This document shows, piece after piece, positions 9,291-14,350 of a stretch of 64,000 bases of DNA. The notes below the pieces were generated by a model. The model was not told where the DNA came from. It ran no database searches and worked only from the letters and a program-made list of their open reading frames with translations. The position numbers and the translations under genes are program-made. Positions within the stretch are counted from its first letter, which is position 1; every line of letters starts with the position of its first letter. Source of the DNA: an uncultured Planctomycetaceae bacterium. Lineage in GTDB: Bacteria; Planctomycetota; Planctomycetia; Pirellulales; PALSA-1355. The stretch lies in NCBI GenBank assembly GCA_963793635.1, contig CAWCAX010000006.1, positions 597,802-661,801 on the forward strand, read 5' to 3'.

Positions 9291-10060
9291 ATGAACGCCA
9301 CGACGACTGCCCCCGATCATCCGGTTGTTTCCCAAGCCGAATGGCTGCGTGCCCGCGGCCAACTGCTGGCCAAGGAAAAGGAGCTGACTCGCCTGAATGA
9401 CGAGCTGAGCCGACAGCGCCAGCAGTTGCCCTGGACCCGCGTCGAAAAATCATACGCCTTCGTCGGGCCGCAGGGCCAGTTGACTCTGGCCGACCTCTTT
9501 GGCCGGCACAGCCAACTAGCAGCGTATCACTTCATGTTCGGTCCCGACTGGACCGAAGGCTGCCCGGGCTGTTCCTACTTGATGGATCACATGGACGGCG
9601 CGATCGAGCATCTGGCGGCGCGGGACGTGGCGCTGGTGCTGGTTTCGCGCGGGCCGCTGGACAAGATCGAAGCCTTCAGGCGGCGGATGGGTTGGCGATT
9701 CTTTTGGGTCTCGTCGGCCGGCTGCGATTTCAATCGCGACTTCGGCGTTTCGTTCAGCAAGGAAGAGCTCGCCGGCGGCGAAAAGCTGTACAACTTCGGC
9801 TCGATCGTTCCGCACGGCGAAGAAAACCCCGGCATGAGCTGGTTCTACAAGGATGCCGCGGGCGCCGTGTTCCACACTTATTCGACGTATGGCCGCGGAC
9901 TGGAAGGGATGGTGGGAACGTACACGGTCCTGGACCGAGGGCCCAAGGGCGCGACGAAGACAGCCTGCCCTCGCCGATGTCCTGGGTGCGCCACCACGAC
10001 AAGTACGAGCCGGCCGTCCACAGCTTGGAATCATGCTGCCACAAATCGGACAATCACTGA
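9291..10060 (+). CDS. DUF899 family thioredoxin-like protein (frameshift near 9945)
   Basis: LLAKEKELTR...LPW...YHFMFGPDWTEGCPGCS...FHTYSTYGRG; the C-terminus PKGRDED...WVRHHDKY lies in the ORF 9692..10060 frame. Confidence 0.88.
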
Positions 10061-10367
10061 CCGCCGGCTGCTGCCACGCCGCCGATCCGCCGGCGCACTC
10101 TGCCCGGGGTCGGGACACTGCCGCGGCGCTGCTGGGGCTGGGTCTATGGGCTTTGGTGCCCAAATGCCCGCTGTGCCTGGCCGCGCACGTGGCGCTGTGG
10201 ACCGGCCTGGGGCTGTCGCTGACCACGGCCACGCTGCTCCGCTGGTTTTTGCTTTCGCTGGCGGCGCACTGCTGGGTTACGTCGCGCTGAAGCGAGTCCG
10301 CGCGGTAGGACCAGCGGCGCGCGGAAACTGCCGGCCGCCGCCGCCGACACATTCGAATCGCGGCTAA
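10033..10367 (+). CDS. Small membrane protein with PKCPxC motif (probable frameshift near 10262; start uncertain)
   Basis: LLGLGLWALVPKCPLCLAAHVALWTGLGLS hydrophobic stretch directly after DUF899. Confidence 0.6.
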
Positions 10368-10455
10368 AGTCAACTCGCCTTTTGCGCCCGCTCAGGCAGG
10401 AAATCAATTGGCCTGGCATGAGCGAGCGCATCGAGTCCAGTGGAGGCGGCGGGAA
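10349..10455. repeat. Direct-repeat copy of 11294-11401, including 15 nt of the tmRNA 3' end (att-like scar)
   Basis: acattcga...cgccttttgcgcccgctcag...atgagcgagcgca.cgagtc...tggaggcggcgggaa occurs in both copies. Confidence 0.85.
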
Positions 10456-10614
10456 AGATCGAGATGAATTGCGGCCGGTGCCGAGCTTGAATCGCCCCAA
10501 TACATTGCGAGGCAGGCTTGCGTCGATTTTGAATGCCAAAAGAACGTTATTGCAAAACGCGCCGGCAGTTATTGCAATTCGGCCGCACGATTTGTGAAGG
10601 TGTGACCGGCACGG

Positions 10615-10908
10615 CTAGATCTTGACCACTCGTGTTTTTTGGCCGGTTTGTGCCTCGATGTTCTCGCAAATCTCAGCAATGATTTGATCCGCCCGCTCCT
10701 CTGAAATTACCCCGGTTTCAAATGCGACTTGGAAGCCGGGGTCCTCATCGGAAAGGCTTATTTCAGCGCCCTCGACCTCGATGCGGTTGCTTCCCCATCC
10801 GTCGATGTTTTTTGACGCTGTGCGAATTGGATGAAGGACGTTCGGGTACTGGTCGCCTGGGATTGAAAACCATTCTTCGTCGGTGCCGCGAATCAGATAC
10901 TCAAGCAT
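10615..10908 (-). CDS. Small acidic hypothetical protein
   Basis: 97-aa ATG ORF co-oriented with and 39 nt downstream of the GIY-YIG gene; lower GC than the flanks. Confidence 0.7.
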   Translation of the reverse strand: MLEYLIRGTDEEWFSIPGDQYPNVLHPIRTASKNIDGWGSNRIEVEGAEISLSDEDPGFQVAFETGVISEERADQIIAEICENIEAQTGQKTRVVKI

Positions 10909-10947
10909 GCGATTACCGACAAGTGGGAACGCACCGCGAAATTGCGC

Positions 10948-11259
10948 CTATTTCCTGCGTCGACTCAGCGCGTGTAGGCATTGCAGGTTGCCGGAGACAA
11001 GAGCCGACTTCTTTGCGCGCGTCCAGCTTTTGAGCTGTTTTTCTCGTTTGATTGCCTCGGCCCGACTGGCATGCTGCTCGGAAAATGCAAGCTTCACCGG
11101 CAGCCGGGCGGCGGTATAGGCTGGACCTCTGCCCGCTTGATGAGTCTCAAAGCGCACTTCCAAATCGCACGTGAAGCCCACATAGTAGCTGCCGTCGCTA
11201 CATTCAAGGATGTAAGTAAACCAGATGCCTGCGCTCGGCGCCGATGGGACATCCTCCAA
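10948..11259 (-). CDS. GIY-YIG nuclease family protein (UPF0213/YhbQ-like)
   Basis: FTYILECSDGSYYVGFTCDLEVRFETH...G..YTAARLPV...AIKREKQLKSWTRAKK. Confidence 0.9.
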   Translation of the reverse strand: MEDVPSAPSAGIWFTYILECSDGSYYVGFTCDLEVRFETHQAGRGPAYTAARLPVKLAFSEQHASRAEAIKREKQLKSWTRAKKSALVSGNLQCLHALSRRRK

Positions 11260-11267
11260 GATTCGGT

Positions 11268-11386
11268 CCCTCGACTCACTTCGTTCGCTCAGGACATTCG
11301 ACTCGCGACTGAAGCAAATTCGCCTTTTGCGCCCGCTCAGAGCAGTGGTTTTATTGGCCTGCCATGAGCGAGCGCAGCGAGTCGAA
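11268..11386. repeat. REP-like palindromic arms between tmRNA and GIY-YIG
   Basis: tcgactcacttcgttcgctcaggac and ttcgactcgc...gcccgctcagagc are inverted relative to gccatgagcgagcgcagcgagtcgaa (11361-11386). Confidence 0.75.
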
Positions 11387-11746
11387 TGGAGGCGGCGGGA
11401 ATCGAACCCGCGTCCCGCGACGTTTCCATGTGCGCTTCTACGTGCGTAGTCGGATCATTTACGCGTCTCGCCCAAAAGGCCCCCAACCGACAGGGTGCCC
11501 TCCAGGCCAGTCAGGAACATTTTTAGCCTCGGGCGTGCCCAACAGTGACCTGAGGCGGTTCGGAATTGGTGACGGACTTTTGGGCCTCTCCGACGAAAGC
11601 CCGCAGCCCGGGTTACCTATCTCTAGGCAGCCAAAGCAAAGGTATCTTCGGCAATTGAAGATTTGGTCAGCTTTTTACGTGGCCCACTGACCAACCACGG
11701 CACGCCACCCACACTTCAGCAATCCGGTCGAACCCAGTTCGCCCCC
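11387..11746 (-). ncRNA. ssrA: tmRNA (SsrA)
   Basis: 5' GGGGGCG pairs with 3' CGCCTCCA, including the G3:U70 Ala identity pair; T-arm GGGTTCGATTCCC. Tag ORF at 11623-11652 reads AEDTFALAA*. CCA is not encoded. TATAAT lies at 11767-11772 on the - strand. Confidence 0.97.
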
Positions 11747-11879: not shown

Positions 11880-12085
11880 GAGAATGGCCACAAAAAACAC
11901 AAAAAGGCACAAAAACCGGCAGGCCAGCGATCACGCCGAAGATCGAATACGAGGCCACGCCGAGAATGGCCACAATAAACGCGAAAAGACATGAAAACCG
12001 GCGGACCAGCGATCACGCCGAAGATCGAATACGAGGCCACGCAGAGAACGGCCACAAAAAACACAAAAAGGCACAAAAAATCGGC
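11880..12085. repeat. 82-bp tandem repeat (~2.4 copies) containing a 9-nt-periodic GCCACAAAAAACACAAAAAGGCACAAAAA motif
   Basis: Units start at 11880, 11962 and 12044 (gagaa[t/c]ggccacaa...). Related inverted 9-periodic motifs lie at ~12187-12260. Confidence 0.85.
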
Positions 12086-12276
12086 GGGCCGCGGTCACGA
12101 TGCAAAGAACAAACGAACAGCTCGAAACGGCGGCCGGAACCATGCCACATCGGTCACGGCTTTCACCCTTTCATACTTCTTCGTTCCTCTTTGTGCCTCT
12201 GTGTCTCCGTGGTTCCCTTTGCCCCCCATCCTCTCTGCGTCTTTGCACCTTTGCGGTTCCCTCCCCCCGAAGCATC

Positions 12277-13462: not shown

Positions 13463-14350
13463 ATGTTCAAAAATCTCAATCTCGAAGCGCTAGGAGTTTC
13501 GGGTCGTTCCAGCGAAATCATTGAATTGGCCCTTTCCAACGGTTTCAAAGGGCTAGACCTGGACCTGGTCGACTTCGCCAGCCAGGTGAAAACGCACGGC
13601 CTGGCTCACGCCCGGCGACTGATTGACAGTTCGCGGTTGAAATTCGGCAGCTTCGCGCTCACACTCGACTGGGACTTGGACCCGGCCGCGTTCAAGAAGG
13701 AGCTGGACGAGCAGGTGCCACACTTGGAGCTGGCTCAAGCGCTTGGCTGCACGCGGGCCGTCACCATCGTACAACCGGCGAGCGATCAGCGGCCCTACCA
13801 CGAAAATTTCGACACGCACCGTCGCCGCTACCAGGAACTGGGCGACCTGCTCGGCGGCTATGGAATTCGCTTGGGCGTGGGTCTATCGGCCGATGTTCGG
13901 CTCCGCGCCGGGCGGGCTTTTCAGTTCATTCATACGGTCGACGCCTTTTTGATGTTGTTCCGATCGATCGACTCTTCGCACGTGGGCGTGGCGCTCGACA
14001 TCTGGCATTGGGGCTTCGGCGGCGGCTCGCTCGATCAAATCCGTTCGCTCGAGGATAAGATCGTCACCGTGAGCCTGGCCGATGCCGCACCCGGCATGAC
14101 GAGTCAGAACGCCGACGAAAACACCCGCCGCTTGCCCGGCGAGGCCGGCGTCATCGATTCGGCCGCCATTCTGACGGCCTTGAGCGAACTGCATTACGAC
14201 GGTCCAGTGACCGCGATGCCCTCGAAACAAGTCTTTCAAGGTCAGGGGCGCGAAAAGATCGTCAAACAAACTGCCGCCGCGCTGGACACCCTGTGGAAAG
14301 CCGCCGGCATTCGCAAGGAGGACGGCAAAAGGATTGGGATGAAAGGATGA
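13463..14350 (+). CDS. Sugar phosphate isomerase/epimerase (xylose-isomerase-like TIM barrel)
   Basis: GFKGLDL...LAQALGC...GVALDIWHW...RRLPGEAGVID...YDGPV pattern. Confidence 0.8.
   Translation: MFKNLNLEALGVSGRSSEIIELALSNGFKGLDLDLVDFASQVKTHGLAHARRLIDSSRLKFGSFALTLDWDLDPAAFKKELDEQVPHLELAQALGCTRAVTIVQPASDQRPYHENFDTHRRRYQELGDLLGGYGIRLGVGLSADVRLRAGRAFQFIHTVDAFLMLFRSIDSSHVGVALDIWHWGFGGGSLDQIRSLEDKIVTVSLADAAPGMTSQNADENTRRLPGEAGVIDSAAILTALSELHYDGPVTAMPSKQVFQGQGREKIVKQTAAALDTLWKAAGIRKEDGKRIGMKG

Follow-up and report, generated by a model that had tools for sequence, protein, structure and literature searches.

A small GIY-YIG nuclease cassette at the exact 3' ends of tmRNA and tRNA genes in an uncultured planctomycete and its relatives

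Ssn proteins are single-domain GIY-YIG nucleases of about 94 amino acids (aa) which, in the available portion of the paper of Chenal et al. 2025 (PMC11893778), are described as binding a hairpin beside their own gene, as single-stranded DNA (ssDNA) only, and as cleaving a few nucleotides (nt) upstream of this hairpin motif. In the same portion the authors remark on a layout like that of insertion sequences (IS), leave the role of these proteins outside Neisseria open and recognise Ssn proteins by a top CDD hit to cd10448 or by a BLASTP match to N. meningitidis SsnA (E-value below 1e-10, with 75% of the length covered). GIY-YIG genes also adjoin tRNA genes in the case of homing endonucleases such as SegB of the T4 tRNA gene cluster (PMC13096335), which are presumed to spread via a nuclease-made break and repair copying; the Seg and Tev enzymes are phage-borne and have a separate DNA-binding domain. 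Here we consider a 64,000-nt stretch of DNA (the window) from an uncultured Planctomycetaceae bacterium (assembly GCA_963793635.1, contig CAWCAX010000006.1), on the - strand of which the intact gene for transfer-messenger RNA (tmRNA), ssrA, is followed by a cassette made of a palindromic leader (the proximal arm), a second short motif and the gene for a single-domain GIY-YIG nuclease of about 100 aa. This cassette belongs to a family whose place is precisely at the 3' boundary of tRNA-like genes.

Like the Ssn system (SsnA and its NTS/SRM hairpin repeats), the cassette combines a GIY-YIG protein, about 100 aa long and with a single domain, with its own hairpin motif carrying a conserved 5' flank, and the protein fits the published Ssn size criterion (at most 150 aa); this likeness is judged from size, single domain and hairpin motif against the available portion of PMC11893778. 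By contrast, the motifs of the cassette lie 5' of its gene only, there are one or two copies per genome here against hundreds in Ssn, and the address at tRNA and tmRNA 3' ends has no counterpart in the main text of PMC11893778, where the word 'tRNA' occurs 0 times. The PF01541 match of the window's nuclease (E 5.2e-17; score 62 bits, cut-off 22.6; residues 13-84) is its sole Pfam domain and, unlike in the Seg and Tev enzymes, no second, DNA-binding domain was detected by Pfam: the protein is a catalytic domain alone, chromosomal and preceded by a palindromic leader. Residues Y16, Y26, R36, H40 and E61 are invariant in an alignment of seven cassette copies and we take them to be the catalytic Tyr, Tyr, Arg, His and Glu of the GIY-YIG motif. 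The closest solved structures are the UPF0213 proteins BH0048 (PDB 1zg2, E 5e-15) and EF2693 (PDB 1ywl, E 1.5e-11), which are similar in size and also have a single domain, and the structure entries of which give neither a function nor a genomic association. The start codon of the nuclease gene is uncertain (TTG as listed) and there is no other small GIY-YIG gene in this genome.

Using the 31-nt left part of the arm as a query, with at most three mismatches, we searched 301 genomes of the same order and obtained nine matches in eight genomes, the reversed control giving 0. In all nine the arm starts 0 nt past the discriminator base, and the tRNA-like end is of alanine type: three follow a tmRNA gene (window, G001 and G164), two follow tRNA-Ala(GGC) (G087 and G018:C270, the latter cut by a contig end), two follow tRNA-Ala(UGC) (G165 and G295) and two follow a 3' fragment of ssrA (24 nt in G031, 13 nt in G018:C75). 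The open reading frame (ORF) of a GIY-YIG protein stands behind the arm in full in seven cases, truncated in one and is lacking in one, and the cassette proteins are 50-72% identical to that of the window. Judging from these sequences, the targets in this clade would be mainly of alanine type, tmRNA and tRNA-Ala, which have the 3' end ...CTCCA in common. A truncated cassette copy lies at locus L046.

An alignment of the seven cassette proteins was then used to collect 584 relatives, with one genome per species, and the best 79 loci were examined; this set includes G001, G018:C270, G295 and G164, which are also among the arm matches. In 22 of the 79 loci, ARAGORN found a tRNA or tmRNA gene on the same strand that ends at most 500 nt upstream (tmRNA 10, tRNA-Ala 5, tRNA-Gln 2, tRNA-Ser 2 and one each of tRNA-Val, tRNA-Gly and tRNA-Arg). 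With 90 tRNA and tmRNA genes in 6.2 Mb, a random oriented site would have such a neighbour in about 0.4% of cases, and therefore only about 0.3 of the 79 loci would be expected to have one by chance (a rough estimate). Together with the nine arms at 0 nt, this bears out the association of GIY-YIG genes with RNA-gene ends that an earlier note on this DNA had proposed for checking, and supports in part its picture of a minimal cassette targeting tRNA and tmRNA genes: the arm and the GIY-YIG gene are a module that recurs, with a sporadic distribution, and abuts on tRNA and tmRNA 3' ends to the single base. In two further loci the neighbouring tRNA or tmRNA gene is on the opposite strand. At locus L065 (546-1228), from a Desulfuromonas metagenome-assembled genome, the GIY-YIG gene is 100 nt from an opposite-strand tmRNA gene and no arm was seen.

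The same orientation was found with sequence patterns. Of the 79 loci, 28 have a pattern for the T-arm and acceptor end upstream in the same orientation, the controls giving 5 (reverse strand) and 4 (downstream); this pattern adds RNA-gene ends that are cut by the contig or fragmentary (L061, L073, L074 and L088), and two of the 28 matches (L096 and L111) look like chance. The short form of M2, a motif inside the arm (CTCGCTCATGGCARGCC), is upstream on the same strand in 25 loci (4 on the reverse strand, 3 downstream), and the pattern of the motif just before the nuclease gene, hairpin B (YCCYGAG..YCGADGGR), in 22, versus 2 and 2 in the controls. The more distant relatives among the 79 are in ordinary gene contexts, without M2 or hairpin B motifs. 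A junction at which TTCGAC directly follows the RNA-gene end is present in 16 loci beyond the window. The hosts, according to the record titles, are Planctomycetota, KSB1, Desulfobacterota-like 'Deltaproteobacteria', Verrucomicrobiota and Acidobacteriota. Where such an arm follows an encoded CCA, its right end is lengthened to GAATGGTG in four cases out of six. This lengthened end pairs with the last five bases of the RNA gene, CACCA; where CCA is not encoded, only the CA/TG pair is formed. Arms may also be repeated, with two each in L068, L069, L070 and L100, and five tandem arm units in L094 (about 1011-1500), between the tmRNA gene and the GIY-YIG gene of a member of the Verrucomicrobia.

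The features of the window are given in Table 1. The 3' terminus of ssrA is ...CCGCCTCCA, with CCA not encoded, and the proximal arm begins 0 nt past the discriminator base. This arm is bounded by a perfect 12-nt terminal inverted repeat (11295-11306/11377-11388), and its outer stem, CATTCGACTCGC/GCGAGTCGAATG, takes in the final two bases of ssrA. Its DNA fold is of -29.8 kcal/mol (z -5.6 versus shuffles), and a 146-nt stretch that takes in both the proximal arm and hairpin B has an RNA fold of -62.7 kcal/mol (z -3.9). Within the arm, M2 is a candidate recognition site, the long form of which occurs in this genome at the two arms only. Hairpin B echoes the CTGAGCG...GAGTCGA pattern found in the right half of the arm, and taken alone it gave no stable hairpin in DNA folding. 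Searching Rfam with the arm returned nothing except tmRNA at E-values up to 1, and a simple scan from ssrA to the 97-aa ORF behind the nuclease gene (ORF97) found no sigma-70-like promoter and no - strand terminator, which is weak evidence for read-through from the RNA gene. Two candidates were considered and rejected by eye: a hammerhead-like core in hairpin B, where the CUGANGA core is not matched, and the ATG of M2 as the start of a conserved N-terminal extension, as it is in frame in some loci only and its frame stops after four codons in the window.

Table 1. Features of the cassette and its surroundings in the window (numbering of the forward strand).
Feature	Position	Strand	Description
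tmRNA gene (ssrA), intact	11387..11746	-	ARAGORN, tag AEDTFALAA; Rfam RF00023, 164 bits, full model
Proximal arm	11294..11386	-	Imperfect palindrome, 92-nt, inverted repeat
Motif M2	11356..11373	-	GCTCGCTCATGGCAGGCC; small GGC..GCC hairpin with conserved 5' flank, inside proximal arm
Hairpin B	11266..11295	-	30-nt motif, GTCCTGAGCGAACGAAGTGAGTCGAGGGAC (GTCCTGAGCG...GAGTCGAGGGAC), just 5' of nuclease gene
GIY-YIG nuclease gene	10948..11259	-	Pfam PF01541; single domain, 103 aa, isoelectric point (pI) 9.5
ORF97	10615..10908	-	ORF; acidic, 97 aa, pI 4.3, 19 D+E against 8 K+R
Stub	10441..10455	-	Second copy of the final 15 nt of ssrA, TTCCCGCCGCCTCCA; exact repeat
Distal arm	10349..10440	-	Older decayed copy, 84-87% alike to proximal arm
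DUF899 gene	9291..10367	+	Pfam PF05988, E 1e-83; flanking host gene, thioredoxin-like, convergent

The layout that the earlier note had read from the letters (ssrA, arms, GIY-YIG gene, 97-aa ORF, 15-nt ssrA copy and diverged arms) was found again by ARAGORN, Rfam, Pfam and repeat search, and its two repeats about 945 bp apart, which consist of the segments 10349-10395/11294-11340 (87%) and 10407-10455/11353-11401 (92%), were measured at a spacing of 945-946 nt. The two arm copies are 84-85% alike over the aligned stretch and are the only ones in the 6.2-Mb assembly. The distal arm has lost its outer stem, folds at -18.7 kcal/mol with a z of only -1.6, and has neither hairpin B nor a nuclease gene behind it; its sequence identifies it as a decayed older copy of the proximal arm, as had been suggested. 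The similarity of the stub to ssrA may reach about 5 nt further across a 3-nt indel, and an exact match to the final 14 nt of ssrA is found at two sites in this genome but at a single one in each of the three congeners. As for the integrase or transposase said to be lacking in the window, none of the 21 PF00589 (tyrosine integrase) matches of the genome is in the window, the nearest being about 16 kb past its end, and this negative holds for PF00589 alone, serine recombinases and transposase families not having been scanned. The listed 3' end of the DUF899 gene overlaps the distal arm, and the homologs of this gene in the congeners are 8.6-12.5 kb away from ssrA. On the other side, two tandem copies of a multi-copy repeat of about 80-120 nt (GTGCCTTTTTGTGTTTTTTGTGGCC...CGTATTCGATCTTCGGCGTGATCGCTGG...) are present just upstream of ssrA (window about 11880-12270), and this repeat is also found on contigs C2 and C4 of the window genome (G000) and in G001-G003.

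ORF97 had been thought to be a cargo gene or an inhibitor. Its 35 homologs, with source names such as Gemmataceae, are 60-100% identical to it, and 30 have a length of exactly 97 aa; it was absent from all 40 relatives that were searched, and it had no match in Pfam or NCBIfam (the nuclease, too, matched no NCBIfam name). In none of eight metagenome loci was a tRNA, tmRNA or GIY-YIG gene found near an ORF97 homolog. Since it is missing from the sister cassette of G001 and since its homologs adjoin neither RNA genes nor GIY-YIG genes, ORF97 is not cassette cargo, and the idea of cargo or inhibitor was dropped; from sequence comparison, it is a real conserved gene and a foreign passenger, outside the cassette family.

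The earlier note had asked for empty ssrA sites in close relatives, and two genera allow sites with and without the cassette to be compared. In genus g39, three species have the same tRNA-Ala(GGC) gene with the same downstream neighbour, but the stretch that separates the two genes differs. In G161 it is about 137 nt long and contains an ordinary terminator; in G087 it is taken up by the cassette, with arm, hairpin B and GIY-YIG gene (about 490 nt); in G048 it holds a different cassette, in which a hairpin, TTTTTGGCC..GGCCAAAAATAGAGCAGGAG, precedes a PF05635 gene (E 1e-29; L055 2111-2633). In genus g1, the window genome and G001 are both filled at ssrA, while G002 and G003 are without the cassette. 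The G001 nuclease has 72% aa identity to that of the window and similarity stops near its stop codon; G001 has neither ORF97 nor the stub, and no Pfam domain was found in the four ORFs downstream of its cassette. In G003 and G002, a hairpin TTTTTGCC..GGCAAAAATAGAGCAGGAG is directly 3' of ssrA (L037 about 975-1010 in G002), with a PF05635 gene behind it in G003 (L036 about 13597-14181). Such presence and absence at a fixed site among close relatives is a trait of homing endonucleases.

There is thus a second type of mini-cassette at the same RNA-gene ends, with a hairpin TTTTTGSC..GSCAAAAATAGAGCAGGAG as leader and a PF05635 ('23S rRNA intervening sequence protein') gene. It is like the GIY-YIG cassette in having a small ORF behind a long stem, in or beside a stable RNA gene, and it holds the same tRNA-Ala and ssrA 3' sites in G048 and G003; it differs by its leader and by its protein, which is a four-helix bundle and not a nuclease. 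Neither of the two PF05635 genes of the window genome is beside a tRNA gene. For the GIY-YIG family itself, we computed a FastTree tree of 83 proteins, which come from the 79 loci, from the window and from three extra copies (one of them identical to L070). One group of 28 rows (support 93) takes in all 14 tmRNA rows and six of the eight tRNA-Ala rows, parsimony requires at least five switches between tmRNA and tRNA-Ala, one pair of sisters combines the two (support 96), and the window and G001 proteins nest amid tRNA-Ala copies. This interleaved tree and the gains and losses within genera speak for repeated arrival at RNA-gene ends of alanine type rather than for a fixed function in the host.

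On this evidence the arm and the nuclease gene (11386-10948, about 440 bp) are probably a small, integrase-free, site-specific selfish cassette, for which we infer the mechanism of insertion. One alternative is that a tyrosine-integrase island at the ssrA 3' end duplicated a 15-nt core and was afterwards stripped of the integrase and of most cargo genes, ORF97 being a leftover and the nuclease module either a part of the island or a later arrival. Islands of this kind are known at ssrA in Dehalococcoides (available part of PMC3146451), a target site that the cassette shares with them. In the window, moreover, the ssrA 3' end is directly repeated, and such an exact repeat, here of 15 nt, of a tRNA-like 3' end at both borders is the classic footprint of an attachment (att) site, while ORF97 is foreign to the lineage. 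Further, G031 has an integrase beside ssrA (G031:C61:14043-15169, L040) and, on another contig, its 24-nt stub with an arm remnant and no nuclease gene, as if an old cassette had been displaced by an integrase island, and in G018:C75 the DNA ahead of the 13-nt stub is AT-rich and looks foreign. The 15-nt stub of the window could therefore have arisen through an integrase. However, the window contains no PF00589 match, the ssrA end is present only once in each of the three congeners, and no integrase was found between ssrA and the flank in the congener stretches examined (in G003, 13 ORFs were scanned). The integrase-bearing island in relatives, which the earlier note had named as the case that would speak against its proposal, was encountered once, in G031. 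Such an island would also need at least three events (insertion, deletion and arrival of the cassette), and it leaves unexplained both the extension of the repeat by about 92 nt past ssrA into the arm and the recurrence at tRNA-Ala genes that have no stub. The cassettes differ from integrase islands in having no integrase, in their size of 0.44-0.95 kb and in that most copies lack a flanking repeat. We consider this origin unlikely, though it deserves to be kept in mind.

More improbable still, in our opinion, is a module serving the host, in which the arm would be a processing or termination structure and the GIY-YIG protein a housekeeping protein of UPF0213 type co-transcribed with the RNA gene. 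It would agree with an arm that starts at the last bases of the RNA and pairs with them, with the lack of a terminator from ssrA to the nuclease gene, with UPF0213 proteins as the nearest solved structures and with the many relatives in ordinary gene contexts. It accords poorly with an arm confined to 8 of the 301 genomes of the order, with presence and absence within one genus and a normal terminator at the empty site, with the same module behind different RNA genes that are interleaved on the tree, with decayed or truncated copies (the distal arm; L046) and with the tandem arm array of L094. Among transposons, IS200/IS605 elements insert right after a fixed short sequence, as a rule without target duplication, and the cassette is alike in this. 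IS200/IS605 and REP/RAYT also have a hairpin at the element end (PMC11893778, in its available portion), but no HUH (Y1) transposase domain is present in the GIY-YIG gene or in ORF97, the only ORFs of the unit, and a right-end hairpin was not found.

Several observations weigh against a selfish cassette and temper our preference for it. A hydrolytic nuclease by itself cannot integrate DNA. No mobility event was directly seen: the best share of words with the stretch among public sequencing runs was 0.09, and the four runs examined, from related organisms, covered the tmRNA part alone. The right boundary of the cassette is undefined, as a downstream copy of the RNA-gene end is present in the window only, that is in one of nine arm loci, and the integrase at ssrA and displaced stub of G031 imply that stubs can come from integrase islands. 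The genome has one cassette, and all five of its tRNA-Ala genes (contigs C4 and C6 of G000) are unoccupied and end in ordinary hairpin-plus-T-run terminators. No upstream RNA gene or 3' end was found in 52 of the 79 relatives (51 if an ssrA fragment seen by eye in L087 is counted), and most forks of the protein tree, built on 94 columns, are weak. The wobble pairs of the stems do not favour either strand (in 12 of 23 arms it is the sense strand that folds better; G-U 46 versus 42), and therefore neither a role as RNA nor one as DNA of one strand is favoured. Finally, the SRM hairpin pattern of Ssn, as published in the available portion of PMC11893778 and written as a regular expression that recovers the published NTS in all its variants (24 of 24), had 0 matches in the 64-kb window and in none of the 79 loci.

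For the selfish cassette, a nuclease acting on hairpins is plausible by analogy, and the following course can be proposed. The protein would bind its own leader hairpin as ssDNA and nick nearby, as the published Ssn nucleases do; the break near the RNA-gene boundary would lead repair to copy the cassette into a tRNA-like gene free of it, the conserved RNA gene serving as left homology arm and the right end being joined without homology. The nuclease gene, having no promoter of its own, would depend for its expression on read-through from the RNA gene, which is strongly transcribed, and the long stem that starts from the last bases of the RNA may help host RNases to release the tmRNA 3' end. 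In the window, an older copy would have been joined by a newer one that landed in front of it and had the unrelated ORF97 fragment in its wake, and this event would account for the 15-nt stub and the decayed arm. In its simplest form this history would be a single event, in which incoming DNA with ssrA, arm, nuclease gene and ORF97 recombined via the conserved ssrA body and was joined, non-homologously, about 15 nt inside the end of the resident ssrA, ahead of the older arm.

The earlier note had seen here an undescribed system. A nuclease paired with a hairpin was published in 2025 (PMC11893778, in its available portion), which qualifies this claim. Our literature searches, which did not cover subscription journals, returned no paper linking GIY-YIG genes to tRNA or tmRNA 3' ends. 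What appears to be new, on sequence grounds and with a mechanism that we infer only, is an Ssn-like nuclease and hairpin pair with a precise RNA-gene-end address.

We put forward a broader proposal tentatively, holding it to be possible and a little short of an even chance: that there are autonomous elements of about 0.45 kb in which a hairpin-guided nuclease of about 100 aa and a palindrome that pairs with the end of the target RNA gene direct insertion precisely to the 3' boundary of tRNA-like genes that accept alanine, and which hop between tmRNA and tRNA-Ala genes across phyla, use the host RNA promoter and compete for sites with at least one other cassette type (PF05635), a homing without integrase, intron or separate DNA-binding domain. 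If mobile, these cassettes would be among the smallest site-specific elements known, would suggest that Ssn-type nucleases serve in nature to drive selfish spread and would account for some of the integrase-less 'islets' at tRNA and tmRNA genes. Pairing of the leader with the last bases of its target would be a simple rule by which a nuclease of 100 residues could find one site in a genome, and this rule may be of practical interest for programmable cutting of ssDNA.

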